Source of the DNA: Candidatus Latescibacterota bacterium
Lineage (GTDB): Bacteria; Latescibacterota; UBA2968; SICM01
DNA: 64,000 bases
Reading direction: 5' to 3'
Assembly: GCA_965217865.1 (NCBI GenBank)
Contig: CBDCJO010000001.1
Span: 160,001 to 224,000 of the forward strand
This document shows, in pieces, positions 32,597-49,062 of the stretch (the stretch's first letter is position 1; every line of letters begins with the position of its first letter). Below the pieces are notes generated by a model. That model was not told the origin of the DNA. It was given only the letters and a program-made list of their open reading frames with translations, and searched no databases. Made by a program: the position numbers and the translations under genes.

Positions 32597-33865
32597 TCAT
32601 TTTTCTTTTTGCTCTCGAACCGTGATTCTTCCCCAGTAGGAGTAGGAGTAGACTTCCCCGTGGGGATACACGTGAGCGCCGGGGTGGATCCGGATCATAT
32701 CCATACCCTTTTTGAGAGGATTGAGCGCCCTCTCGAAGTCCCCTCCTTTTTCCCTTCGGAGTTCGTCATCGATCCATAAACGCCAGGTGCCTTTGGAATT
32801 GTCCCAGGCCATTCTGACTTTGTAAACTCGCCCGTTCTCCGCTTGAAGGGGGGGGTCGAAGCTATCGTAGTAGTACATACCGCCGGGGGGGATAAGCCCG
32901 GACTCAACCGCAGCGCTTATCTCCTCCCAGGAATCTTTTCGCTCCCCCGAGGAACACCACAACCCGTTGTATATCATAACGCTTATAGAGCCACCCCCTT
33001 CCCCTGGCCGCTGCCCCTCCTCATTCACCCCAAAGGCGATCTCCTGGCGTACGTCCGTGGTCATCATCTCAAACGTGACCGAGCCTTTTAGGACCGACGA
33101 GGGCATCCTGCACACCACATCTCCGTACTTCGTGCAGACCTCCAACCATCGATGGTCTTTCATGCTCAATTTGCTGTCGTGCCACTTTTCCTGGGGGTAA
33201 TACTTCTTCACCGCCCAGTCGTTCCAAAAATGTGGAAAATTTTCGTAATCTACCTGTTTCCCCCTGGTGGTCTGCGCATAGTGATCCAACCAGATCACGG
33301 TGCCCGGTTCCACCGTCTCCGTCTGAAGTTCCAGCTTGTCGATGGATGAAACCCCCTTCACGAGGGGGACTTCGAAGGCCTTTCCATCGAGTTTGAAGGC
33401 GAAACTTCCTTTCTGAAAATCGAAACCCCCGAATTCATACTTGTGAAGCGTGGATCTGATGGCATACAATCGCCGGTTGGACTGCCACCAGGTGGGGCCG
33501 ATCGAGTTGTCCGCCCATTCCCTTTCCCCCGTCCACTGAAAAGTCAACATCGCCCCGGAGTCCACAAAATCCCGTCCGTCGCTGAAGGCCATGAGGCCTT
33601 CCCTGTCGATCCTTAAATCCGCGGCCGGCCGATCGTCCTCCCCGTAAAGGACGACGTGGTAAACCCTACCACAGGTGACTTGCATCGAAAGTTCTACCGT
33701 GGAATCCCCCCCGGTGATCCTCTCGCCGAGAAGACGGTTACACTGTACCCGCCCCTGTGATCCGTCCATCGTGAAAAATTGGTCATCACCGATGGTGTAT
33801 TTCCCGCTTCCCAGCGGGTCGTGCCAATGCCACGCCTGATCGAATAAGATCTCTTCTTCGGACAC
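32597..33865 (-). CDS. Hypothetical protein (beta-rich, Trp-rich)
   Basis: Long ORF; AAGGAG RBS before GTG 33865; co-oriented with neighbours; no family recognised. Confidence 0.7.
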   Translation of the reverse strand: MSEEEILFDQAWHWHDPLGSGKYTIGDDQFFTMDGSQGRVQCNRLLGERITGGDSTVELSMQVTCGRVYHVVLYGEDDRPAADLRIDREGLMAFSDGRDFVDSGAMLTFQWTGEREWADNSIGPTWWQSNRRLYAIRSTLHKYEFGGFDFQKGSFAFKLDGKAFEVPLVKGVSSIDKLELQTETVEPGTVIWLDHYAQTTRGKQVDYENFPHFWNDWAVKKYYPQEKWHDSKLSMKDHRWLEVCTKYGDVVCRMPSSVLKGSVTFEMMTTDVRQEIAFGVNEEGQRPGEGGGSISVMIYNGLWCSSGERKDSWEEISAAVESGLIPPGGMYYYDSFDPPLQAENGRVYKVRMAWDNSKGTWRLWIDDELRREKGGDFERALNPLKKGMDMIRIHPGAHVYPHGEVYSYSYWGRITVREQKEK

Positions 33866-33882
33866 GCATTCTCCTTTGACTT

Positions 33883-34533
33883 TTACTGTTCTTGGCCGGG
33901 GGTTGTCGACCCCCGTCTTGCCCAAACGATAAACATGGGATCCATCGATCGGTCGGGCGTCGTGTTGCGCTTGACCACTTTCGGGGGATGGAACATTTCA
34001 GAGAGCTCAAAATATCTTTTCACGATTGCGATATGGCTGTCGTTGTCAGATTCCCGCCACATCCGAACCGCTTTTTCCCAGAAGCAACGGTCCGAAAACG
34101 CAACACAGAAAGGGCTCTCGGGTTTCAACAACCGGGCGACCTCACGAAAGACATCCAGGGGATGGGTCAGATACTGCACCGAGACGCTCATCACGGCGGC
34201 ATCGAATGAGCGCGGGGGGAACTTTGTCCGGGGATCCCGGTTGATATCCCGCACGACGAAATCGCTAAGGATCGGATTGTCCCCCATTTCCTCGGCATTT
34301 AATCCCACCCCTACGACCTCCCCCTTAAACGAGCCGGGCAGGTGAGACCTCCAGTTGCTCATCAGGTCCAGGGTTTTCCCGTCCTCCGGCAAAACCTCCG
34401 AATAGAAGGATCGAAGCGCCTCCACGGCGCCTTCGTCAATATGGACAAGCTTGCGTGCCTCCGAGTAAAAAACCGGGTCATCGGATTCATTGAGCCGCTC
34501 ATAAGCCCCCAGCTGAAACGGATCGTTTTTCAA
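33883..34533 (-). CDS. SAM-dependent methyltransferase (type 11-like)
   Basis: D..FY...LVHID, LDLMSNWRSHLP, GLNAEEM..N, VSVQYLTHP; TTG start overlaps the upstream stop. Confidence 0.85.
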   Translation of the reverse strand: MKNDPFQLGAYERLNESDDPVFYSEARKLVHIDEGAVEALRSFYSEVLPEDGKTLDLMSNWRSHLPGSFKGEVVGVGLNAEEMGDNPILSDFVVRDINRDPRTKFPPRSFDAAVMSVSVQYLTHPLDVFREVARLLKPESPFCVAFSDRCFWEKAVRMWRESDNDSHIAIVKRYFELSEMFHPPKVVKRNTTPDRSMDPMFIVWARRGSTTPGQEQ

Positions 34534-35423
34534 ATACCGTCTCCTGGACAGATCACGTTCAACGCCCTGCAAACCACCGTAATAGTCGCAGGGGTTTTAC
34601 AGAGGGGTTCCCCATCGCCGAAGATCCACATCGGTGTGGAAGATTCGATCCTCAATCGTTCCGTCCGAAGGATTTCCACGGATGCGGAATTCACGTGGGA
34701 TCCGAAGAACACCAGCGGAAACAGAAGCAGCACGCGCCATCGGGGCATGTGATGCACGATGCAGATGTCCAGGACGCCGTCATCGCAGACAGCGGAAGGC
34801 ACAATCCGCATCCCCCCGCCATACGTCGAAGTATTCCCGGCTGCAGACAGAAACACTCGCCCCGTCACAGTCCCGAAGTCCCCGGTCAACCGCATTTCGG
34901 GGCTCCGATAGGTCAAAAGCGTCTTGAGCGTCCCCAAAATATATGCCGCGGTCCCGCCCAAGGGCTTCCCGTTCTCGTGGATTGAAAGGGCGACTTCCGC
35001 GTCGAATCCGACCATCGCAACCGTGCAGAAATACCGATCCCCCACCCGGCCCAAATCGATCCGGCGCACCTGCCCTTCAACAAGGAGATCCGCCGCGTGA
35101 GCGGCCCCTTTCGGAAGGTTCAGGACGCGGGCGAGATCGTTTCCGGTCCCGCAGGGCACGATCCCCACGACGGTGTTCAACCCCGCCGCAGCCGACACCA
35201 CTTCGTGCACCGTTCCATCTCCCCCGCAGGCCACAAGCCGTTGGACGCCATCCTTTACGGCCTCCGCAGCGATGACGCGTCCGTGTCCCCTTTCTTCCGT
35301 GAACGTCAACCGGACGGAAATCCCCTTCTCCGCTAACCTTCTACGGACCTCCTCACCCACCGACCTTCCCCGTCCCCTTCCTGAGACCGGATTGGCGACT
35401 ATGAGATATTCTGGGATCGACAT
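34530..35423 (-). CDS. Diacylglycerol/lipid kinase (YegS/DAGK family)
   Basis: ANPVSG, CGGDGTVHEV, PCGTGNDLA, GFDA, YGGG, DGE. Confidence 0.92.
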   Translation of the reverse strand: MSIPEYLIVANPVSGRGRGRSVGEEVRRRLAEKGISVRLTFTEERGHGRVIAAEAVKDGVQRLVACGGDGTVHEVVSAAAGLNTVVGIVPCGTGNDLARVLNLPKGAAHAADLLVEGQVRRIDLGRVGDRYFCTVAMVGFDAEVALSIHENGKPLGGTAAYILGTLKTLLTYRSPEMRLTGDFGTVTGRVFLSAAGNTSTYGGGMRIVPSAVCDDGVLDICIVHHMPRWRVLLLFPLVFFGSHVNSASVEILRTERLRIESSTPMWIFGDGEPLCKTPATITVVCRALNVICPGDGI

Positions 35424-35442
35424 CAAAACACAGGTCCGGATA

Positions 35443-35524
35443 CCGGAAATGGAAAACCGCGAGCGTCGGGTGTTCGGAGTCGAAAGTGGGAGTCCGAGGT
35501 CCAGGAGTCGAAGTTCAAAACCGG
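35443..35524. repeat. Degenerate 7-nt tandem repeat tract
   Basis: GAGTCGA AAGTGGG AGTCCGA GGTCCAG GAGTCGA AGTTCAA; resembles the reverse complement of STRR-like units. Confidence 0.5.
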
Positions 35525-35601
35525 TATGACCTCATTGGATTTTCTTCTGGACACGGACTCCTGAATGCTGACTTCCGGCGTGGGCGGGAGCGAGGAACTT
35601 T

Positions 35602-37149
35602 TTACCCGACTTTCACGTACAGAAAGGGCGGAATGCTCAACCCGACGACGTCATCCCCGGAATTGATTTCCCTGGCAAGACCCAGCGCATGGTTTATGCT
35701 GGGTGCCCAATCAACTCCGAGTTTTTTGGCGGTCTTATCGTCCCTGGGACCGACGAGGATGACCTTTGAGAGATATTTCAGAGGATAGGTTGCCCAGTAC
35801 CAGACGGTAAACGGGTGGAAGCCGTGGTGTGCGTATTTGTTCCGGTAACAGTCTATGAGATAGGGGTCAAGTGCGAATTTCTCCTGGAACTTTTGCTGCA
35901 TTTCGAAAGGTTCCGTGGTCTCGGCTAAGACCTCTTCATAAAATTTCTTATACGCAACGTGATATTCTTCGTGAAAGATCTCAAAGGTGGGGTTGACGAT
36001 GATAATCACCCCCCCTTTTTTTACGATCGGTCTATTATAAAACCAGTTGAAAACATAACCCAGTACATCGCTGACCACCAGAACGGGGTTGATGCGCGCC
36101 CCCACCGAGTAAGGGCTCAGGTCCGGAAGCCCGAAAACAAGGGTGCCGAATTGTCTGGGCACGGGAACGGTCAACTGAGCGTTCACGGCGTTCAGGGTCT
36201 TTGCGTGGACATCATCGATGGCCCCGGCGTTGATCTCGATCGGATCGTAGGACGTGCGGATGCCTTTGAAAATTTGGAATCGGAGGGGTTCTGGAAGCAC
36301 CGCCATGCTCGCAGGGGTGAAGAACTTCAGAACGCGCTCAATGGGGTTACATCGGTCGTTCGGTTTGCTGATGTATCTCAGGTAGAACGGGTAAGTCGCG
36401 CTGTTCATCGGGGCTTCCAATACCATAATCCTACAATGTTTCTGAAGGAACCTGCTCATCCTTTCGATGGAAGCGTGCATGCACGAATTTTCCGGCTGCA
36501 TCACGTGAGGGTTCTCCGATGTCATCTGGGGAGAATGGTGAGGCGCAATCGAACGGTAGGTTCCCAAACCCACCGCGACCGATTTATGGCCCCCGTTCAG
36601 AGGTATCTGAACCGTATCGACATAGATGACCAGATCGCTTTCGACCACCGACCGGTCTACCTCCACGGCTTCCCCCGCTTCGGTCTCTCCGAGGAAAGTG
36701 ATATGATCGGGATCTTCCGCATCGAAATTTCGCAATTGTTCCGGATAAAACGCCTGCATGAGTCTTTTACCCAACATGGCGGCCAACTCGTGTCTTTTCA
36801 TTTTTCGGTGAAGCGCGACCGCACAGATCAGTCGGATATTTTCCTTCTGAACCCCGTAGGAGAACAATTTTGAGATCAGGGTTTCGATGACGATCTGCCG
36901 GATATCCGGTTTTTTTGTCGCGGGGAAGGGCTGGCAATTATCGTCGAAAGCGATGGTGATTCTGGATTGGCCGTTGACGATTTTACTTAAGGGGGGCATC
37001 CCGCAGGGATTTTCAATAGCCTCCTGGACCGACTTCGGAATATCCGGTCTTTTTATTCCAGGAACGTGTGGAGGGGAATAATAGATTTCAGAATTGTCAG
37101 GCAGGTTTGCATTAATCAGATTGTTGCCCGAGTATGTCAGATATTTCAT
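35602..37149 (-). CDS. Lactate racemase (LarA/DUF2088) domain protein
   Basis: AIENPCGMPPL, IAFDD..QP, AVALHRKM, LGET..GE.VE, GGHKS, HHS. Confidence 0.8.
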   Translation of the reverse strand: MKYLTYSGNNLINANLPDNSEIYYSPPHVPGIKRPDIPKSVQEAIENPCGMPPLSKIVNGQSRITIAFDDNCQPFPATKKPDIRQIVIETLISKLFSYGVQKENIRLICAVALHRKMKRHELAAMLGKRLMQAFYPEQLRNFDAEDPDHITFLGETEAGEAVEVDRSVVESDLVIYVDTVQIPLNGGHKSVAVGLGTYRSIAPHHSPQMTSENPHVMQPENSCMHASIERMSRFLQKHCRIMVLEAPMNSATYPFYLRYISKPNDRCNPIERVLKFFTPASMAVLPEPLRFQIFKGIRTSYDPIEINAGAIDDVHAKTLNAVNAQLTVPVPRQFGTLVFGLPDLSPYSVGARINPVLVVSDVLGYVFNWFYNRPIVKKGGVIIIVNPTFEIFHEEYHVAYKKFYEEVLAETTEPFEMQQKFQEKFALDPYLIDCYRNKYAHHGFHPFTVWYWATYPLKYLSKVILVGPRDDKTAKKLGVDWAPSINHALGLAREINSGDDVVGLSIPPFLYVKVG

Positions 37150-37203
37150 AAGGCCCCGCCCCGGTTATGAACCCGGAAGATCCGTGTCAGACTCGTCCTC
37201 CCC

Positions 37204-38397
37204 CTACCCTTCGCGTAAATCAAAAGCCGTTTTTATCGAGCCGTTGCGTCCGGTATGCATGGCCACCTCTAAGGCCTCCCGGTAATCCCGAAGGGGAAAC
37301 TTGTGGGTCACGAGCGATGTAAGCCCGTCCTTGAGCCCCTCCATGAGTCGAAGCGCCAGCTGGAAGGTGCGAATCGTCTCGCCGTCCCAGCATTCTGTAC
37401 CGTACGTGTAAGATCCGACGACCTGCAGCTCCTTATACCAGATCGAGGTCCAATCCACACCGGAGGGAATCGCAGGCATGCCCACCAGTATGGTCTTCCC
37501 CCTTGCTCGCGTAAAGCGAAGGGCGTCATCGATCGTCCGGGCGTTCCCGACGCAGTCAAAAACGACATCCGCCCCTCCCACCAGGACCGACTTCCCGAGC
37601 TCCGGCCGAAGTTGTTCCGCCCCCGTAGCTTCACATACGGACTCGTAGAGGTTCCTCCCATCCTGGATGATTTCGTTCGCTCCCAGTCCGAGGGCGGATT
37701 CTTGCTGGTGGGAGTATCGGGCAACCGCGATGATCCTGCTTTCGCTCCCGAGCGCCCTCAGGGCTGCAACGGTCAACAACCCGATGCTTCCACACCCGAT
37801 AATCAGAACAGTGGCTCCTTTTTCAGTCATACCGCGAAGGGCCCCGTGGACTGCACACGCAAAGGGTTCGATCAACACGGCCTCTTCGTCGGTCATGTCA
37901 TCCGGTACAGGATGAACCTGAAAAGGATGTGCAACAAGTGACCGACTCCAGCCGCCTCCCGTATCTCTGCAGAATCCTGTCTGAATGCCGGATGAGATGA
38001 TGCCTTTCGTTGTCTTTTCACAGTTTCCATAATCCCCGGCGGTACACCGGCGGCAGTGGTCAACCCCCCTGACCACGCAGGGTAACGCGGGTTCGAGAAC
38101 CACACGCCGCCCTTCTTCCGTCTCTCCCACCATCTCGTGACCGAGTACGAACGGGGTGGAGACAAAAGGCGAAAAATAGGGACTGCCGTTCGCCGAGACC
38201 GTCGCAAGGTCCGATCCGCAGATCCCGCTCAGTCTCGGTTTGATCCGGATCCACTCAGGGGACGGAAGCTTCGGTTCCTCGATCTCGGATAGTCGGATGC
38301 AGGAATAAACTCCGGTGCTCAACCCGGTCCAATACCCCCCCAACAATCTTACCTTCAGATAGCGCGGGATGCTCTTGATGTACTGGATGGCCTCCAT
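37204..38397 (-). CDS. Zn-dependent alcohol dehydrogenase (MDR family)
   Basis: GICGSD, GHE, structural Cys cluster, EPFACAVH, GCGSIG. Confidence 0.9.
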   Translation of the reverse strand: MEAIQYIKSIPRYLKVRLLGGYWTGLSTGVYSCIRLSEIEEPKLPSPEWIRIKPRLSGICGSDLATVSANGSPYFSPFVSTPFVLGHEMVGETEEGRRVVLEPALPCVVRGVDHCRRCTAGDYGNCEKTTKGIISSGIQTGFCRDTGGGWSRSLVAHPFQVHPVPDDMTDEEAVLIEPFACAVHGALRGMTEKGATVLIIGCGSIGLLTVAALRALGSESRIIAVARYSHQQESALGLGANEIIQDGRNLYESVCEATGAEQLRPELGKSVLVGGADVVFDCVGNARTIDDALRFTRARGKTILVGMPAIPSGVDWTSIWYKELQVVGSYTYGTECWDGETIRTFQLALRLMEGLKDGLTSLVTHKFPLRDYREALEVAMHTGRNGSIKTAFDLREG

Positions 38398-38453
38398 CTC
38401 TCAAGATAGCCTCAATATATAACGGGACAGGGTATTCGATTTCGACCTTGAAT

Positions 38454-39161
38454 TTAAACCTTCCGGCTCACGCTCCATTCAGCCACCTCCCACCCGCCTT
38501 CTTCTGCTGCCCTCCGAAGCCTCCCTTTCGGATTTACCGCCACCGGATGTCCAACACAGCGGAGCATCGGCATGTCCGCGCCGCTGTCGCCGTATGCGAA
38601 GCTTTCCGCAAGGTCGATCTGTTGGGCTTCAGCGAACTCCCGCACAAGCCGGGCTTTTTCCTCGTCTCCGACCGGAGGACCGGTCAACCTTCCGGACAAA
38701 ATTCCGTTCTCCTCAGACATCCGTACGGAGATCACATCGCCCACATCGAGCAGCCGGGCAAGAGGGGCCACGATGAAGTCCAGGGAACCCGTGATGAGCA
38801 CCACCCGCTCCCCGTTATCCTGATGTCGCTTGACTCGTGCAACCGCTTCGGAGTACAATCTCGGCCTGATTTCACGCTCAAATAGCCCACCGGTCTGTTC
38901 GCGAAGTCGTGAGCCCGGCATCCCCCGATAGCTTCGATAAAAGACCCGGTTGAATGCGCTTCTGCTGATTTTGTCGATAAGGATGAAGGAGATGATTTGA
39001 GGAATGAACCCCGTCCAGAAGAAAATTTTTTGAAGTCTGGATCGGTCATGGGTCGCGAAATAGGCGTAGTAATGAACGATCGTAGCCCGGACAATGGTCC
39101 CGTCGACGTCGAAAAAAGCAGCCCTGGACCCGATCGAATCCATCTGTCCCGCAGACCCCAT
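38454..39161 (-). CDS. HAD-IB family phosphatase
   Basis: FFDVDGT, ITGS, GDEEK, AYGDSGAD.PML..VG.PVAVNP. Confidence 0.9.
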   Translation of the reverse strand: MGSAGQMDSIGSRAAFFDVDGTIVRATIVHYYAYFATHDRSRLQKIFFWTGFIPQIISFILIDKISRSAFNRVFYRSYRGMPGSRLREQTGGLFEREIRPRLYSEAVARVKRHQDNGERVVLITGSLDFIVAPLARLLDVGDVISVRMSEENGILSGRLTGPPVGDEEKARLVREFAEAQQIDLAESFAYGDSGADMPMLRCVGHPVAVNPKGRLRRAAEEGGWEVAEWSVSRKV

Positions 39162-39173
39162 AGGTGAAAATAC

Positions 39174-41168
39174 TCACGGCCCCGATGGTTCGGGGTTCAA
39201 AAGGCTTGTGATATGAACAGCCTGGAAAAGGGACGCTGACTCCACCTGAGTACGGAGCGATCTCCGCCGTGGCAGCAGGGTCGTCTCTCCGGGCATCGGA
39301 GGAGATATCACAACCTCGACCAATCCGGGATTGATGTGGAGGTTTCCCTTCGGGCACTTGGGCCAAAGGGAATGGATGCCACGGAAGGCGAGTGGAATGA
39401 TGACAACGTCATGGGGAAGCAGTGCGAACAGGGCGTGTTGGAGGGGGGGAGATTGGAGGCCAAAGGCAGCGATGGTCCCCGCAGGATAAGTCAGCCCGGG
39501 TCTTTCCCCCAGGGCCTGAACCAGGCGCTGAGTCGTAGGGATGGCATCCCGGGATCGCTCGAGCGTTACATATCCGTCCACATCTGCGAGCAATCCGTCG
39601 AATCTCTCCGCGGACATCCCGAACATGGTCATCGACCAGGAGCCGATCTTCACACCGGCATTGGCCAGCCCTGTGCGAGCCAGGATCACGAATGGAACCG
39701 GTCGTTTCCACCCCATCGCCCCCAAAAATTCTGGACTCCCCAGAACGTGGTACATAACGGGATGGTCCAGGTAACTCTGATGCGTGGGCAGCATGAGAAT
39801 CTTCTTCTTTCCGCTTCCAAGCTCAAGCCCTTGCGCGATCGGAAGGAACTTGGGATCGATCTGGATCTTTACCTGAATGCCGAAGGTGCGAAGCGTGGCT
39901 TCCGCCCAGTCCAGGCAATACTGCCAGGCGAGTTCACTCCTTTCGGCTGAATCCAGATCGGCCTTGGTTAAATTTATTTTTCGCCGCCCCAACCTGAAGG
40001 AGGCAATCACCCAGCGTCCCAATCTCAACCCTCGGGACCAATTGGACAATACGGAACTTCGGCCGACGTGAGGATACTCGAGGAAATGACCGCTGACTTG
40101 ATCCGAAAGCAGAGGGGGTACGGACACCGGATGAAGCCCTTCAACACCCGCGCGGACTGAATCTTTAACCCGAAGAATATCCCGATTGACACGTGCGACC
40201 AGGCGTATAGCTGTGTCGGTCATATCCCGTGTCAGATAACTGTAGTGATGCCCGTACCAGTATCCGGCCGGTTTCAATTGAGCTGGATTTTCCCGGTGCG
40301 CCCCCAAAAATTCGACCATCATGCTCTGGGCACGATTGATCTCCCCCTTGAGTGACTCGGCGGCCGACCGACCCAACCCCAGATCGCCGAATTCGTAAAG
40401 CTGGTAGCGAAGCAGATCCGCTTCTGTTATGACCTTCCACACGGAACTCCCGAACCAGGCGAAATTGGTATAGGCGTTGTAGCGTGTGGTCAGAAATTCA
40501 CCGGCGGCGATATAATCCAGGGTGCTCTTGACGACCTTTCGAAGCGAGTCCAGCAGAGGAGCCTCGGTCGTATGTCCCCCAAACGTGCATGCGTAGTTGC
40601 CCCCCCATCTCGGGTCGTCGCAGACCGCAACAGCGGGCAACGCCTCGGCGACGCCCTGAGCGTGGGACATCGGAACCCGCGAAATTTTTGCCCGCTCAAG
40701 CGCAGCCTCTCCCGCGTCGGGAACCAGGAGATCCTCCTTCGCCAACACATCCACGTAGAGGCTCTGGTAAAGTTGAAGCAAGTCCTCCTCGGTTCCGATC
40801 CCCCTATCGACGAATTGCTTCTGAACCTGAATATAGATAAGGTTTGCCTCGTGATAAGCCGGACAGGCGCTTTGGAACTGTGCGTGGGATTCGGACAGCC
40901 GTTTCTCCCTCAAGGCGGGTACACGATCGAAGATGGTCCGGATGAGCTTGGCCCTTTTCAAGAGACCCGGAAGGCCGATCGAACCCTGCTCATTCCGGCT
41001 CGGGGGCCAGATGAGTTCGTCGGGATCCCAACCTTCAAGGTGCCCGTCGGAACGCGCGATTTCGACCATCTCCTGCGCGGCCTGGTCGTAGATGTTCAAC
41101 ATTCCATCCGGGTCCTTCAGCAACTCTTCATAAAGAGGGTTGGGACCTATCTCAAACTTTTTCTCCAT
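39174..41168 (-). CDS. Unknown N-terminal domain fused to a PlsC-type acyltransferase
   Basis: C-terminal ~230 aa contain PTHQSYLD (HxxxxD), YPAGT (FPEGT-like) and IIPLAFRG..LWPK; first ~420 aa not recognised. Confidence 0.75.
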   Translation of the reverse strand: MEKKFEIGPNPLYEELLKDPDGMLNIYDQAAQEMVEIARSDGHLEGWDPDELIWPPSRNEQGSIGLPGLLKRAKLIRTIFDRVPALREKRLSESHAQFQSACPAYHEANLIYIQVQKQFVDRGIGTEEDLLQLYQSLYVDVLAKEDLLVPDAGEAALERAKISRVPMSHAQGVAEALPAVAVCDDPRWGGNYACTFGGHTTEAPLLDSLRKVVKSTLDYIAAGEFLTTRYNAYTNFAWFGSSVWKVITEADLLRYQLYEFGDLGLGRSAAESLKGEINRAQSMMVEFLGAHRENPAQLKPAGYWYGHHYSYLTRDMTDTAIRLVARVNRDILRVKDSVRAGVEGLHPVSVPPLLSDQVSGHFLEYPHVGRSSVLSNWSRGLRLGRWVIASFRLGRRKINLTKADLDSAERSELAWQYCLDWAEATLRTFGIQVKIQIDPKFLPIAQGLELGSGKKKILMLPTHQSYLDHPVMYHVLGSPEFLGAMGWKRPVPFVILARTGLANAGVKIGSWSMTMFGMSAERFDGLLADVDGYVTLERSRDAIPTTQRLVQALGERPGLTYPAGTIAAFGLQSPPLQHALFALLPHDVVIIPLAFRGIHSLWPKCPKGNLHINPGLVEVVISPPMPGETTLLPRRRSLRTQVESASLFQAVHITSLLNPEPSGP

Positions 41169-41180
41169 ACATCCTTTTCC

Positions 41181-42821
41181 TTAAATCTTCTTCTTTTCGA
41201 TTTCTCCATCCGGATCCACCCCGTCCTCCGATTCTTTCAGGACGTGCCTTTTCAATCCGGGGATATGAATCTCCTGGATATACGCCTTCCAGTCGATACG
41301 TCCCACATCGAAGTTGAAGATCCTCTGCTCTTCTAAATTTAAATCCCGGTACAGGCGACGGGTGTTCTTCGTGGCAAACCGACAATCCAGATTGGTGTAG
41401 GGACTATAGATCTCGGCAAGGGACATCACTTTTTGAAGCGTGGCCTCCAGGGTGGTGACCCTTCGTCGCAGCGCCCGCGACCAGGGAATCGCCGAGACAT
41501 TATCGATCAACCATTGAAGTGTATTCAGCGGAATCTGGTATTTCAAACGACAGCGCCGCCGGAACTTCCTCGGTGAGGGAAAGGACCATCGATGTACCGG
41601 AATCGGGTCCCCTCCGCGGGTCCGCATAGGGTTCTTAAGGAAATATTCATGGACCAGTTTAAACATCTCTCCGAGTTTCAGCGGATTTTCAGTTCCCGTC
41701 GCAACTTGGTAAACCGCGACCTCTTTTCCGAAATTCGGTTTGGCCAGGGCAGCAAGCATCGCATTGACCACCATATCCACTGGCACGACATCGAGCACGA
41801 TATCGGGATTTGCAGGGAAGTCGGATATCCTCCCTTTGCTGTAATGAACGATCAACGTGTCTGCCACTTTTAATCCGTCAAGCCATCCGGGCTCAGGATC
41901 CACCAGGCTGCTCTCGATGATCGATGGACGAACGATGATGGTGGGCATATCCCCCCGTGTCTGGAGAATGGCCAGCTCCCCCATCGCCTTCGTGAGGGTA
42001 TAGCTGTCGTGCCACCCCATCCCCCTCGCCCTGCGCATCCCTTCATCGATCAACCTTCGGTTCAGCCACCGTTTTCGGGTGGCTTCGATAAGGGTCTGCA
42101 TCCGGTGCTCGGATATGGCGCGACCGTTCTGCTTTCGGATCGACCTTTGGAATTTCGCCCTCATCTCGGGAAGCCGCGATTCCTCCTGAACGCTTCGGCT
42201 GAATGTGATAATGTCCTCGATCTCCCGGTCCAGATCGAAGACATTTCCGTCTCTTCCCAGATGTGCGACGGTCTGCGAAGAAAGGATCGGTTCCTCGGGA
42301 ACCCGTCCGGTCTGCCTTCCGTTGACATATGCCGTGGAAACGTGCAGGAAAATCGGTTCGCGACACCCCGTTGCAAACTCGACCATTCGCATGGGTCCGA
42401 GGGTATTCAGCTCCAGCGCGAGATCGAGACGTTCATCAAAGACCACGGTGGCCGCGACATTAATCAGGACCTGCACCTCTTCAGCCAACCTGGCGCGCGT
42501 ATCCGGATCGAAACCCAGGCCGTCCTGGGACAGATCCCCTCCAACAGCCGACACCTTAGACCGTATAAAATCCCAGAACCCGTCGCCATACATCCTCCGC
42601 AACTTGGCGAAAGCCCTCGACTCGAACACCTCTCTCTCCAGACTTTCCTGGGCGGACAGAATCCCGCCATCCGGCCCGCGACGAGGTCTGATCATAAGAT
42701 ACAGCCGTCCCACATCCGGGATTTCCGACAGGATCTTCTCCACGAACCCCTTCCCCAGGAAACCCGTCGATCCGGTGACGAAGAGCTTTTTACCACTAAA
42801 AAAATCGGCGATAGTCGACAT
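41181..42821 (-). CDS. Fatty acyl-CoA reductase (NAD_binding_4 + male-sterility domain)
   Basis: TGSTGFLGK, AATVVFD, HVSTAYV, YTLTKAMGE (YxxxK), RPSIIES, PVDMVVNA, IDW..Y...HIPG. Confidence 0.92.
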   Translation of the reverse strand: MSTIADFFSGKKLFVTGSTGFLGKGFVEKILSEIPDVGRLYLMIRPRRGPDGGILSAQESLEREVFESRAFAKLRRMYGDGFWDFIRSKVSAVGGDLSQDGLGFDPDTRARLAEEVQVLINVAATVVFDERLDLALELNTLGPMRMVEFATGCREPIFLHVSTAYVNGRQTGRVPEEPILSSQTVAHLGRDGNVFDLDREIEDIITFSRSVQEESRLPEMRAKFQRSIRKQNGRAISEHRMQTLIEATRKRWLNRRLIDEGMRRARGMGWHDSYTLTKAMGELAILQTRGDMPTIIVRPSIIESSLVDPEPGWLDGLKVADTLIVHYSKGRISDFPANPDIVLDVVPVDMVVNAMLAALAKPNFGKEVAVYQVATGTENPLKLGEMFKLVHEYFLKNPMRTRGGDPIPVHRWSFPSPRKFRRRCRLKYQIPLNTLQWLIDNVSAIPWSRALRRRVTTLEATLQKVMSLAEIYSPYTNLDCRFATKNTRRLYRDLNLEEQRIFNFDVGRIDWKAYIQEIHIPGLKRHVLKESEDGVDPDGEIEKKKI

Positions 42822-42949
42822 GATACGAATTAAATAAGGAATTCAGCCGTGGTGGGGGCGCGACGGAGATCAAACCTCCGTGATGGCGCCAAAGGGAACA
42901 ATCGGGTTAGGATGTCTCGAAGCCGAATGTCCCCGGGGGCAGAAGAAAA

Positions 42950-44716
42950 TCAGTCAGAATCAGACTGCTGATCCACGATCGACCCGGATGGCCGACCCTT
43001 CCGAAGTTCGGGGATTGCGTGCCGCCGAACCTTTTGAGTGGAGGTCTTGGGAAGCTCTTCCTCCAGAACAGATATTCTGCGGATCCGTTTGTAATCCGCC
43101 ATCTGACTGTTCAAACGGCGAACCTCTTCACGCACGGCGGTCTCGATCTCTTCGGGGGAATAAGGGGTCCCACGCTCGTCCTCCATTTGATCGAAGCATT
43201 CCTTTTCCGAAACGACAAGGACCTCGATATCCTCCCCACCCCCGTCCCCGGTCGGAACACCGTAGACCAAGGTTTCCTTGATGAGAGGGCTTGGGTTCAG
43301 GAGTGTCTCGATCTCCTCGGGATAGACATTCTTCCCCCCAGGCGTCACGATCACGTTCTTCGAACGCCCGCAGATATGCAAATATCCATCCCGGTCAATT
43401 CTTCCCAGATCTCCCGTATAAAACCACCCATCCTTCAAGGCCCTCGCCGTCATCTCCGGATCCTTGTAATACCCTTTCATGACGATGTCTCCTGCCGCCA
43501 GGATCTCCCCCACGCCATCGGGTCCAGGGTCTCGGATCCGGACTTGGGACCCGGGCACCGGGACGCCGACCGAATCGTGGCGCGGTCTCTCGGCGGGATT
43601 CACCGTCAACACGGGAGAAGTCTCCGTCAAGCCGTAACCCTGTGCAAACGAAAATCCCAGATCCTCGAAACCCTGCGGAATCGTAATGGGCAGCGGGGCC
43701 CCACCGCAGATGAACAGCCGGACACTCCCTAAACCCGCCTTCTGCCGGAGACTTCGGAAGACCTTGCCACCCACCTTCAAGCCCAGGCCTATCCGGAGGC
43801 CCTTCACGATTCCCATCATCGCACGAAACATGGCCTTGACGGCCGCCGGTTTCTGGTTCACCCCCCGCAAAATCCCGGCGTGAAGTTTCTCGAAGAGAAG
43901 GGGCACGCCAAGCATGACAGTCACGTTCGTATTTCGCATGTCATCTAGGAGGTCCCTGGATTTCAAGCTCCGGGCGTACGTCACGGTCGCACCCACATCC
44001 ACGGGACAGATCAGGCCTCCCGTGCATTCGAACGTGTGGTGCAGGGGGAGGACAGAGAGGAATATATCTCCACTCCCGAGACGAATAATCTCCTGGGCCC
44101 CCCTTGCATCCGTCAGTATGTTCCGGTGGGAAAGCATGACCCCCTTCGGTTTTCCCGTCGTCCCTGACGTGTAGATGATCGCGGCCAAATCATCGGGGGT
44201 AACCCCTGGGGATTCCGACATCGGGGCCCCGGCCTCCAGGACATCACCCCAACCGTCCATGCATATGACCCGATCGATCCCATCCATCTCCTGAGCGGTT
44301 TCTCTAAACCGCTCGGAAACAATCATCCATCGGGTCCCTGAGTCCCTCGCAATCGCCTGGATCTCGGGCGGTTTCATCAACGAATCGAGCGGAATGGCGA
44401 TTCCGCCGCAGGCCTGCGACGCAAAGTAGGCAATAGCCCATTCCGGACGATTTTCCCCCAATATGCCGACGGTTTCACCCGGCCGAACGCCGATCGCCCG
44501 CAACCCCCCGGCCAGCGCGGCCGTCTGTTTGCCCAATTCCCGGTATGTGAGCCGATCGTAAGCACCTTTCCGCCAGGTTTGAAGCGCCACCTTTTCGTCC
44601 AGCTGGGCTGCTCTTCGGGCAACCATCGCTGGAATCGTCGACTCGTCTGCCACGGCTGAACCCCTGAATTGAAAGGGTTTGTTTTTATCTGGATCCGGTT
44701 CGGGCGTTAGGACCAT
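42950..44716 (-). CDS. Long-chain fatty acid-CoA ligase (AMP-binding)
   Basis: YTSGTTGKPKG, LPLHH, GYGLTE, TGDLG, GKNVYPEEIE, LPKTSTQK. Confidence 0.93.
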   Translation of the reverse strand: MVLTPEPDPDKNKPFQFRGSAVADESTIPAMVARRAAQLDEKVALQTWRKGAYDRLTYRELGKQTAALAGGLRAIGVRPGETVGILGENRPEWAIAYFASQACGGIAIPLDSLMKPPEIQAIARDSGTRWMIVSERFRETAQEMDGIDRVICMDGWGDVLEAGAPMSESPGVTPDDLAAIIYTSGTTGKPKGVMLSHRNILTDARGAQEIIRLGSGDIFLSVLPLHHTFECTGGLICPVDVGATVTYARSLKSRDLLDDMRNTNVTVMLGVPLLFEKLHAGILRGVNQKPAAVKAMFRAMMGIVKGLRIGLGLKVGGKVFRSLRQKAGLGSVRLFICGGAPLPITIPQGFEDLGFSFAQGYGLTETSPVLTVNPAERPRHDSVGVPVPGSQVRIRDPGPDGVGEILAAGDIVMKGYYKDPEMTARALKDGWFYTGDLGRIDRDGYLHICGRSKNVIVTPGGKNVYPEEIETLLNPSPLIKETLVYGVPTGDGGGEDIEVLVVSEKECFDQMEDERGTPYSPEEIETAVREEVRRLNSQMADYKRIRRISVLEEELPKTSTQKVRRHAIPELRKGRPSGSIVDQQSDSD

Positions 44717-44799
44717 TCCCGAGCCAGAACCTGTTAAAATTTCCGATCAAATTTACGCCCCACCCCTGGTTTTGTCAAGATCCACCCGCCCCTCCCCCA

Positions 44800-45129
44800 T
44801 CAACCCTGAAGGTGGTAAACTTCCTCCATCATCGCCCACCACTCCCCTGGACGGGCATCCGCTACCGGTTCCTGGAACCCATTCATCAACTTTTGCCACA
44901 CCGCGCACCTCGGATCTTCCATGTAGGAGGAGAAGTCGCTGTCCCAGTTGAAACTGTCTTCGGTCAGGGAATACATAAACAGTCTCCGGCCGATCAGGAA
45001 GATTGTCATTTCCTTGATGCCGATCCCCCGCAATCCGGCCTCGACTTCCGGCCAAACCCTCCGATGATGCTCCTTGTAGACCTCGACCGTTTCCGGTTTC
45101 AAATTCAACGTCAGCCCGAATCTTTTCAT
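44800..45129 (-). CDS. L-rhamnose mutarotase family
   Basis: YKEHHRRVWPEV...L...GI..M.IF, W...M, MEEVYH. Confidence 0.88.
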   Translation of the reverse strand: MKRFGLTLNLKPETVEVYKEHHRRVWPEVEAGLRGIGIKEMTIFLIGRRLFMYSLTEDSFNWDSDFSSYMEDPRCAVWQKLMNGFQEPVADARPGEWWAMMEEVYHLQG

Positions 45130-46614: not shown

Positions 46615-49062
46615 ATGTCCATCCCCGCGCTTCTGAACGAATGGCGAAACGACCCCGAAGTCGCCCCCAACATCGCCGCCTGGCGAACCTTCCCCGAGCG
46701 TCAAAGAACGGCCGTGCCATTCCCGGCCGGGCTCCATCCCCTTCTGAAAGGGGCGTTGCTCCGGCGCGGGATCGACGTCCTCTACACACACCAGGGCCAG
46801 GCGTTGGAACACATACTTGCCGGCCGGCACACCGTCATCGCCACGGGCACGGCCAGTGGAAAAACCCTCTGTTATAACCTTCCTGTCTTGAATCGACTCC
46901 TCGTTGATCCGTCGGCACGCGCGCTCTACATCTTCCCCACGAAAGCCCTGGCCCAGGACCAGAAGGATGAATTGAGGGGGTTTATCGGTGGTTTTGAAGA
47001 AGGTTCCGAAGAGGGAAACCCGCAGCAGCGGATTCCTGTCTCGACATACGACGGAGATACGCCAAAAGGGGTCCGGTCCCGGCCGGGGGAACGCCCGGTT
47101 GGTCATCAGCAACCCGGATATGCTTCACTCCGGAATCCTGCCCCATCATACATTGTGGTCCGAATTTTTCCGCCACTTGCATTTCGTGGTGATCGACGAG
47201 ATACACGTCCATCGAGGCGTGTTCGGCTCGCACGTTGCGAATGTCCTTCGCCGCTTGAAGAGAATCGCGGATTTCTACGGATCAGCACCCCGGTTTATCC
47301 TAACTTCCGCGACGATCGCCAATCCCGAAGAGCACGCCGAACGGCTTGTCGAAGACCACGTCTCACTCGTGGAGGTGGACGGCGCGCCACGGGGGGAGAG
47401 GCATCTCCTGATCTACAACCCGCCGATCGTAAACCGCGAACTCGGCCTTCGCCGAAGCGCCCTGTTGGAGAGCGTTCGCATGGCACGGGACCTGTACAAG
47501 CACGATGTGCAGACCATCGTTTTTGGTCGAACCCGTCGGACCGTTGAATTGATCCTCGGATATCTGCGACGCACCTCGACTCCATCTGCCCACGGGGACG
47601 ACGAAGATGATCGAATACGGGGGTATCGCAGCGGTTACCTGGTGAAGCATCGGAACGAGATCGAGCGGGGACTCCGGGAAGGGCTTGTGCGTACGGTGGT
47701 CGCAACAAATGCCCTCGAACTTGGAATCGATATCGGAGGCATGGGGGCTTCGGTGATGACCGGCTATCCGGGTTCCGTTGCAGGGACCTGGCAACAGGCT
47801 GGCCGCGCAGGCCGCAAGCGCGAATCCTCTCTTGCCGCCTTGATCTCTTCGGCCAACCCACTCGATCAATTCCTGGCGCACCATCCTGACTATTTTTTCA
47901 AAAAATCTCCTGAACAAGCCCTGATCAATCCCGATAATCTCCTGATTCTCTTACAGCATCTGCGGTGTTCGGCGTTCGAGCTCGTTATCCTTCGGGGATG
48001 GTCACCCTGCGAAGCGCCTCTTCCAACCGTGTGGATCTGGAGGCGGCTGAGGAGAATTCCTGGAAAACAATCGGTCACGTGGACATCACCAGCGCTCCCT
48101 GGATGGTCCATCCCCAGGCCATATATCTCCACGAGGGCCAGGCCTACTCCGTTGAGGATCTGGACCTCACCCGAAATGTCGCGCGATTGCGTCCGTGCCA
48201 GGTGGATTATTACACTGAGCCGCGAACCGAATCCACGGTAAGCCTCTTGGAAAAATCCCGCGAGACCCCGGCCTTCGGTGCCACGAAGCTTCACGGTGAA
48301 ATCGCTGTCACGACCCGGGTGACGGGATTTCAAAAGATCAAATGGTTTACCCACGAAATCCTTGGCGGGGGAGAACTCTCGTTGCCTCCAACCCGTCTAC
48401 AGACAACCGGGTATTGGCTCTCCCTGACCGGCCAAACCGTCGAGGGGCTTCGTATGGAGGGGTTGTGGACCAACGACCCTAACGATTACGGGCCCAACTG
48501 GGCGTTGCAACGGGAAAAAGCGATGGAACGCGACCGATTTCTATGCCAAATCTGCGGCGGAACGGAGGTTGAGGTGTCTCATCACGTTCATCACAAGATT
48601 CCGTTTCGCACCTTCGGATCATACGAGCAGGCCAACCGGTTGACCAACCTGGTGACACTTTGCTCAGTCTGCCACCGTCGCGCGGAACAGGCCGTGAAAA
48701 TCCGAAGCGGCCTGGCCGGCCTGGCATACATCCTGGGCCATCTCGCGCCCCTGTTCCTGATGTGCGATGCAAGGGATATCGGCGTTCATTTCGACCCCCA
48801 ATCCCCGCTCTGGGAGGCCCGTCCCACCGTCGTAATCTATGACCTGGTACCGGCCGGGATCGGTTTTAGCGAGCGCCTTTTTGAAAGGCACCAGGAACTG
48901 ATCGCGCGGGCCCACGATCTTGTAGGTTCCTGCGAATGTGGAGAGGGTTGCCCTTCCTGCGTAGGGCCTGCGGGTGAAAACGGAGAGAACGGGAAGCGCG
49001 AGACCCAGGGAATTCTCTGGGCCATTCTACCGCCCAGAGACCACTCTTGTAATTTGCCATGA
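46615..49062 (+). pseudogene. DEAD/DEAH DUF1998 helicase (YprA/MrfA/Hrq1-like) with HNH insert, split over three frames
   Basis: Frame 1 TGTASGKT..YDGDT; frame 2 NPDMLH, DEIH, TSAT, NALELGIDIG, QQAGRAGR; frame 3 HPQAIYLH, HNH, FLMCD, CECGEGCPSC. Breaks near 47083 and 47983. Confidence 0.82.

Follow-up and report, generated by a model that had tools for sequence, protein, structure and literature searches.

In Myxococcus xanthus the locus tags of the elb operon run from MXAN_1531 (elbA) to MXAN_1527 (elbE) (PMC13012113), and therefore elbC corresponds to MXAN_1529. The accessible part of a review lists the ether-bond steps of this pathway and the function of ElbC as unknown (PMC9131029). MXAN_1529 has been listed in group 15 of the LarA homologues (LarAHs; supplement of PMC7583248). 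Groups 14 to 16, to which no function was assigned (PMC7583248), adjoin genes for acyltransferases, HAD proteins, medium-chain dehydrogenases/reductases (MDR), fatty acyl-CoA reductase (FAR)-like proteins and acyl-CoA synthetases (ACS) and occur without lar genes (Table S1 of PMC7583248). In the route through the FAD-dependent AGPS, the acyl group of acyl-dihydroxyacetone phosphate (acyl-DHAP) is exchanged for a fatty alcohol with no net redox change, the oxidised flavin serving as electrophile (PMC3509576).

Here we analysed a stretch of 64,000 nucleotides (the window) from Candidatus Latescibacterota bacterium (assembly GCA_965217865.1, contig CBDCJO010000001.1, positions 160,001 to 224,000). 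It carries a minus-strand operon in which an ElbC-family LarA-like protein and a Zn-dependent MDR accompany a FAR and an acyltransferase that are otherwise typical of AGPS operons. Judged from the gene content and its conservation, the operon very probably makes ether lipids, which supports the ether-lipid link proposed in a preliminary description of this DNA. We further consider it probable that ElbC and the MDR stand in for AGPS and a short-chain dehydrogenase/reductase (SDR) in an animal-type 1-O-alkyl glycerolipid route. More tentatively, the ElbC family may comprise nickel-pincer-dependent alkyl-DHAP synthases, which together with the MDR would form a portable two-gene module that has repeatedly traded places with AGPS and SDR. 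Elb-like clusters outside the myxobacteria, split elbD variants and elbD or agps matches in Latescibacterota are already reported (PMC9426513, PMC11868695, PMC13159169, 10.64898/2026.06.23.733905, as far as these sources are accessible), and the suggestion of a possibly undescribed route outside myxobacteria is not supported.

The exchange of the two gene pairs is seen in two genomes of one genus from the family of the window organism (G001 and G002), whose rhaM, ligase, FAR, acyltransferase, HAD and methyltransferase genes share 77-90% DNA identity. The order is ligase-FAR-acyltransferase-HAD-MDR-ElbC-methyltransferase in G001 and ligase-FAR-acyltransferase-AGPS-SDR-HAD-methyltransferase in G002. 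AGPS and SDR lie between the acyltransferase and HAD genes of G002, and MDR and ElbC follow the HAD gene in G001. Across the phylum the two ether synthase candidates exclude each other: 140 genomes at least 85% complete comprised 111 with AGPS, seven with the ElbC family and none with both. For the class the figures were 110, five and none among 116 genomes, and in the single genome with neither (G024) the contig stops directly after the acyltransferase gene. FAR was present in 28 of 30 ElbC genomes and in all eight AGPS genomes searched, and in none of four genomes with neither; an MDR orthologue was found in 20/20 ElbC genomes versus 0/24 others.

A similar distribution was observed in a second genus (g15), where one genome (G033) has AGPS and SDR and three (G144-G146) have HAD-MDR-ElbC; an ElbD-like fusion and the acyltransferase are common to G033, G144 and G146. 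No DNA similarity was found between the AGPS and ElbC loci of this genus, and therefore only the G001/G002 pair represents a swap within the same operon. The ElbC genes of the phylum fall into at least three separate lineages in a quick tree with flagged long branches. Moreover, no AGPS orthologue was detected in 35 further ElbC genomes, part of 80 that were reached via ElbC loci (mostly Poribacteria, also Phycisphaerae, Eisenbacteria and Gemmatimonadota), in a search that in part had no internal positive control but whose query had matched in the phylum search. Among 61 genomes of Planctomycetota, four with ElbC and one with an AGPS-like gene did not overlap, which gives too little power for an exclusion test. 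The source genome (G000, 96% complete) contains no AGPS orthologue, the best match being partial and 27% identical, and no Ger/PlsA DUF2229 domain (PF09989) in a search that matched in four of 14 controls.

Gene families in the window were assigned by Pfam and NCBIfam profiles. The FAR (41181..42821; PF07993 and PF03015) and the 664-amino-acid orphan-family acyltransferase (39174..41168) are assigned by sequence comparison to a FAR-acyltransferase-AGPS-SDR operon found across the class. In a FastTree phylogeny of 37 rows the window FAR belongs to a 13-member clade (support 98) whose stand-alone FARs come from FAR-acyltransferase(-AGPS-SDR) operons, and the fused FARs of ElbD stand apart. The search for the acyltransferase was positive in 59 of the 61 genomes covered, and most of its named relatives carry the label Latescibacteria, Handelsmanbacteria or Gemmatimonadetes. 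At nine of 20 fetched loci FAR lies directly upstream of the acyltransferase. At seven of these an FAD oxidase and an SDR come next; the locus of G004 lacks a neighbouring oxidase, and that of G001 resembles the window. The FAD oxidase is a true AGPS, matching guinea-pig ADPS (PDB 4bby) with E 5e-162 and retaining the histidine triad. The acyltransferase itself matches PF01553 below the cut-off (E 1e-3). The C-terminal domain of its AF2 model (pLDDT 88.8) has a PlsC/GPAT fold, with PlsC (5kym) as best Foldseek match (E 4e-4), and in its H463-x4-D468 motif H463 is invariant and D468 conserved in fewer than 90% of the sequences. From this fold and the pairing with AGPS we infer a DHAP acyltransferase with the role of GNPAT. 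Residues ~8-400 of the protein are helical with many invariant positions, and this region had no match in Pfam, PDB sequences, the Atlas or by Foldseek.

The preliminary description had read the locus as the activities of ElbD encoded by separate proteins. If so, FAR, ligase and acyltransferase would form the ether, and the LarA-like protein and MDR would be accessory. The window FAR and ligase are indeed 45% and 35% identical to the matching domains of a fused ElbD-like protein, and the split elbD variants mentioned above are further in favour of this view. However, the position of the FAR among stand-alone FARs and an acyltransferase of another family, with no significant similarity to the ElbD type, led us to reject a split-ElbD origin. 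Moreover, five genomes (G007, G013, G033, G035 and G047) hold ElbD-like fusions with AGPS and without ElbC, which suggests that the fusions need a separate ether synthase and makes a cluster that forms the ether by FAR, ligase and acyltransferase very improbable. It also means that elbD alone is no marker of the elb route. Several such fusions of ~1400-1470 amino acids were seen in one family (f2; loci L162, L165, L161, L178 and L180), in genomes that have AGPS but no ElbC.

The LarA-like protein (35602..37149; PF09861) has NF052592 (LarAH14/15/16) as its best model (residues 4-514, E 4e-153, 511 bits). On sequence grounds, including a comparison of its motifs with MXAN_1529 by eye, we assign it to the ElbC family (LarAH14/15 type). 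The earlier statement that HAD and DUF2088 genes adjoin elbD proved correct, as elbB encodes an HAD protein and elbC is the group 15 gene MXAN_1529. Residues D70, H114, K189 and H205, equivalent to D72, H108, K184 and H200 of LarA, are retained and invariant in 102 sequences; among them K189 and H205 correspond to the cofactor-binding residues Lys184 and His200. The loop with the second catalytic histidine (H174) is deleted and the R75 equivalent is replaced by Gln73. A role as lactate or hydroxy-acid racemase was rejected because of the missing H174. The AF2 model (pLDDT 93.9) superimposes on a cofactor-loaded one-histidine LarA homologue (9q3k) with TM scores of 0.81/0.87. According to the accessible part of PMC12611868, the nickel-pincer cofactor is a hydride acceptor and binds sulfite covalently as an adduct, and thus an electrophilic role of the cofactor is plausible, if speculative. 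Genes larB, larC and larE are present in the source genome. There larC lies in two separate pieces (G000:C2:4853382 and G000:C1:130877), and the same split was seen in G001 and G002. LarC co-occurrence was tried as a test of cofactor dependence and was uninformative.

The characterised LarA enzymes, in the accessible descriptions, are all racemases or epimerases, and the MDR-ElbC pair might accordingly make a non-ether lipid from the same precursors, such as an epimerised backbone, a diol lipid or a wax ester, AGPS having been lost as a competitor for the fatty alcohol. ElbC also occurs in a few other contexts, and a Pontiella species with an ElbD homologue was reported to have no ether lipids, as far as that report is accessible. 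However, the protein lacks the second catalytic histidine that racemisation requires, the LarAH14 of Frankia was inactive on every hydroxy acid in the assay table, the elb operon, which holds elbC, is described as the principal route to ether lipids in M. xanthus (PMC9131029, accessible part), and P. propionicum, whose genome includes a group-16 gene, contains ether glycolipids (PMC11237483, accessible part). A non-ether product therefore appears quite unlikely to us.

The neighbourhoods of the LarA-like protein point to lipid metabolism as well. Among the best 80 of 588 metagenome loci we found an MDR at 58, an ElbD-type acyltransferase at 56, an HAD gene at 54, FAR at 42, a ligase at ten, a lipid kinase at five and a window-type acyltransferase at two, together with two weak AGPS matches (28-29%). 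In one genome (G085) the genes after a fused FAR-ACS-acyl carrier protein (ACP)-acyltransferase are HAD-MDR-ElbC-kinase, an arrangement identical to that at the end of the window cluster. MDR and kinase, described earlier as additions in this cluster, in fact widely accompany ElbC and are not unique to the locus. The best 80 genome loci (MDR at 40, including one weak paralogue; FAR at none) might be taken to lack a lipid context, but this reading was rejected since whole-genome searches found FAR elsewhere. In the Poribacteria loci (L001-L080) the ElbC-like gene and the MDR gene are located apart from the elbD-elbB locus, which may explain the reported Poribacteria clusters with only elbD and elbB. 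Seven long proteins included three fusions of ElbC with an acyltransferase and one with FAR-HAD, to which we give little weight as they are single sequences and possible assembly errors. A 3.1-Mb genome (G070) holds seven LarA homologues in all, three of them, of ~470-490 amino acids, in tandem (L145 region, G070:C2:2138766-2142175).

The MDR (37204..38397; PF08240 and PF00107), of the polyol/ketose-reductase type, has the NADP(H) ketose reductase 1e3j as best PDB match (E 2e-24) and is closer to ketose reductases than to aldehyde reductases. After AGPS, a reductase yields alkyl-glycerol phosphate. By analogy, the MDR would be an alkyl-DHAP reductase that replaces the SDR. A different chemistry is conceivable, in which a fatty aldehyde supplied by MDR or FAR forms a hemiacetal with glycerol phosphate that is reduced by ElbC or MDR, or in which ElbC works without the nickel cofactor. 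In M. xanthus the i15:0 aldehyde was found and not the alcohol (PMC9131029, accessible part). In addition, LarA cofactors transfer hydride, one-histidine LarAHs are predicted to perform other hydride chemistry, and the cofactor-binding R75 equivalent of LarA is lost. Nevertheless, K189 and H205 are invariant, the MDR resembles ketose more than aldehyde reductases, and the ElbC versions retain, with 62-68% identity, the acyltransferase otherwise paired with AGPS, an indication that acyl-DHAP remains the substrate. We therefore regard ether formation by such non-AGPS chemistry as unlikely and favour an AGPS-like exchange by ElbC followed by reduction by the MDR.

The reactions of this route are predicted, starting from what was observed for gene identities, synteny, the swap, the mutual exclusion and the cofactor-binding residues. 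The stand-alone long-chain acyl-CoA ligase (42950..44716; PF00501, E 6e-87; no PP-binding domain) is 72% identical to the ligases at the same operon position in G001 and G002 and, by family, would form acyl-CoA; its likely tasks are fatty acid activation and the re-use of the acid that the exchange step sets free. FAR, likewise by family, would reduce acyl-CoA and is the likely source of the fatty alcohol, and the orphan acyltransferase would provide 1-acyl-DHAP. As FAR and acyltransferase are kept while AGPS and SDR give way to ElbC and MDR, ElbC is the candidate for replacing the acyl chain with the fatty alcohol to yield alkyl-DHAP, and the MDR the candidate for its reduction to alkyl-glycerol phosphate. 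Speculatively, the nickel-pincer cofactor would take the role that FAD has in AGPS, either as a redox-neutral electrophile or by accepting hydride transiently. Acylation at sn-2 would be carried out by acyltransferases encoded elsewhere, and the HAD protein and kinase would interconvert phosphorylated and neutral product. The source genome holds two FAR-less ACS-ACP-acyltransferase fusions at other loci (L281 5345-8035 and L282 5705-8284, both on G000:C2), which could be a source of sn-2 acylation; a second DAGK gene is located close to one of them, and a Zn-dehydrogenase gene adjoins the other.

The HAD-IB phosphatase (38454..39161; TIGR01490, 149 bits) is the counterpart of ElbB, is present alike in the AGPS version of G002 and the ElbC version of G001, and likely strips phosphate from alkyl(acyl)glycerophosphate. 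The DAGK/YegS-type lipid kinase (34530..35426; PF00781 and PF19279, TIGR00147 above cut-off) is likely accessory and would re-phosphorylate alkyl(acyl)glycerol. It lies downstream of ElbC in G070, G085, G144, G146, G203, L074 and L188 but does not occupy that position in G001.

Several observations weigh against the proposed exchange. Since 43 of 44 genomes contain LarC, whatever the pathway, its presence is no sign of cofactor dependence. The score of the LarA-like protein for NF052592 is below the cut-off of 740. The contrast between AGPS and ElbC genomes (Fisher p 4e-8) ignores kinship and is overstated because related genomes are not independent; the swaps represent only some three or four separate events. 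In two of the 30 ElbC genomes (G145 and G168) no FAR was found, and at two planctomycete loci HAD-ElbC occurs with neither MDR nor FAR nearby. A second ElbC copy in G145 adjoins a gene resembling nonribosomal peptide synthetases (NRPS). Furthermore, M. xanthus carries both an elb and an AGPS operon (PMC9131029 and PMC13012113, accessible parts), and the exclusion is therefore not universal. The accessible part of a sponge preprint reports agps matches in elbD-holding Poribacteria metagenome-assembled genomes (10.64898/2026.06.23.733905), unlike the Poribacteria genomes examined here, in which no AGPS was found. In its accessible part the review describes no elbC mutant and reports that neither FAR nor acyltransferase activity of ElbD was detected in vitro (PMC9131029), and the aldehyde finding in M. 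xanthus mentioned above belongs here too. The locus of the second G145 copy (L141 682-8301) encodes an NRPS-like protein with adenylation, luciferase-like, methyltransferase and reductase domains, followed by the ElbC-family gene, a cytidylyltransferase gene and an octopine-dehydrogenase-like gene; its product is possibly an ether-linked specialised lipid.

For the ether-bond steps of the elb pathway, the exchange of AGPS for ElbC in an otherwise common operon singles out one gene, and ElbC is likely the enzyme of this step. If true, ElbC would be a non-homologous equivalent of the FAD-dependent AGPS. The family would contain the first nickel-pincer enzymes that make a lipid C-O bond instead of racemising a hydroxy acid, a new chemistry for this cofactor. 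Surveys of ether-lipid producers based on elbD should then seek ElbC or AGPS, as ElbD-like fusions accompany either. In the literature covered, to which most subscription papers did not belong, we found neither a link of ElbC or other LarA homologues to ether-bond formation nor a description of the swap.

The seven co-oriented genes of the preliminary description were confirmed as open reading frames (ORFs) at the positions given here. From ligase to kinase they are separated by gaps of 128, 12, 12, 56, 54 and 175 bp, which includes the reported 12-bp spacing on both sides of the acyltransferase. As also described before, no PP-binding domain, and hence no ACP, was found among the cluster proteins. 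The grouping recurs in G001, G070 and the metagenome locus L188 and is therefore not due to chance. In G070 a streptomycin adenylyltransferase-family gene and a gene of unknown function are inserted between acyltransferase and HAD (L145 3793-4716). Downstream, a small SAM methyltransferase gene (33883..34572, minus strand; PF08241, E 1e-6) overlaps the kinase gene by 43 bp, and a methyltransferase gene forms the cluster end in both G001 and G002. A sigma-70-like promoter match (44750..44778, minus strand; 10/12) 34 nt upstream of the ligase start is weak evidence, as the region has nine such sites versus 6.7 expected. Further upstream lies an L-rhamnose mutarotase-family gene (44800..45129, minus strand; PF05336). 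It is found at the equivalent position in G001 and G002, where it marks the orthologous locus, and is probably functionally unrelated. An Rfam search of the window gave no matches. A 442-amino-acid ORF without Pfam match (32597-33925, minus strand) lies between the methyltransferase gene and a mandelate-racemase-family gene. On the plus strand (46615-49062) a DEAD-box/MrfA-type helicase gene with an HNH insert extends across three overlapping frames, which from the sequence we attribute to two frameshifts or mis-assembly, and is followed by an RNase H-like gene.

Compared with the nickel-pincer LarA racemases, the window protein keeps one of the two catalytic histidines (H114), and Arg75 is absent. 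The closest solved structures belong to LarAH group 17 (PDB 9q3k, 9q3j; PMC12611868; TM scores as above), one member of which was shown to load the nickel-pincer cofactor (PMC12611868, accessible part). In contrast to the deletion at H174 in the window protein, group 17 has an asparagine at this position; identity is 23% and its genes stand in a carbohydrate context. With LarAH groups 14/15/16 (Desguin 2020, PMC7583248; NF052592) the protein shares the fold, the D72/H108/K184/H200 equivalents, the missing H174 and the lipid-gene context, which in group 14 includes an MDR (PMC7583248). It belongs to a divergent subclade, shared with Poribacteria and Phycisphaerae, that is 32-41% identical to canonical members. 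The elbABCDE operon of M. xanthus (MXAN_1531-1527; MIBiG BGC0000871) likewise combines FAR, ligase, a PlsC-fold acyltransferase, an HAD protein (ElbB) and an ElbC-family LarA homologue, and the window HAD protein matches TIGR01490 above the cut-off, a family-level match. However, the window cluster has neither the FAR-ACS-ACP-acyltransferase fusion nor an ACP, its acyltransferase is of another family, and it contains a lipid kinase and an MDR instead of the epimerase-type reductases ElbA and ElbE; no ElbE-type NAD-dependent epimerase/dehydratase was found in the cluster with Pfam. Relative to the AGPS version of G002, AGPS and SDR were not found and MDR and ElbC are present, whereas the flanking genes are identical in kind. 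With the AGPS route in general (M. xanthus MXAN_1676-1674, FAR/GNPAT/AGPS of animals and the FAR-acyltransferase-AGPS-SDR operon of the class) the window has FAR and the acyltransferase in common; these genes are orthologous and identically ordered.

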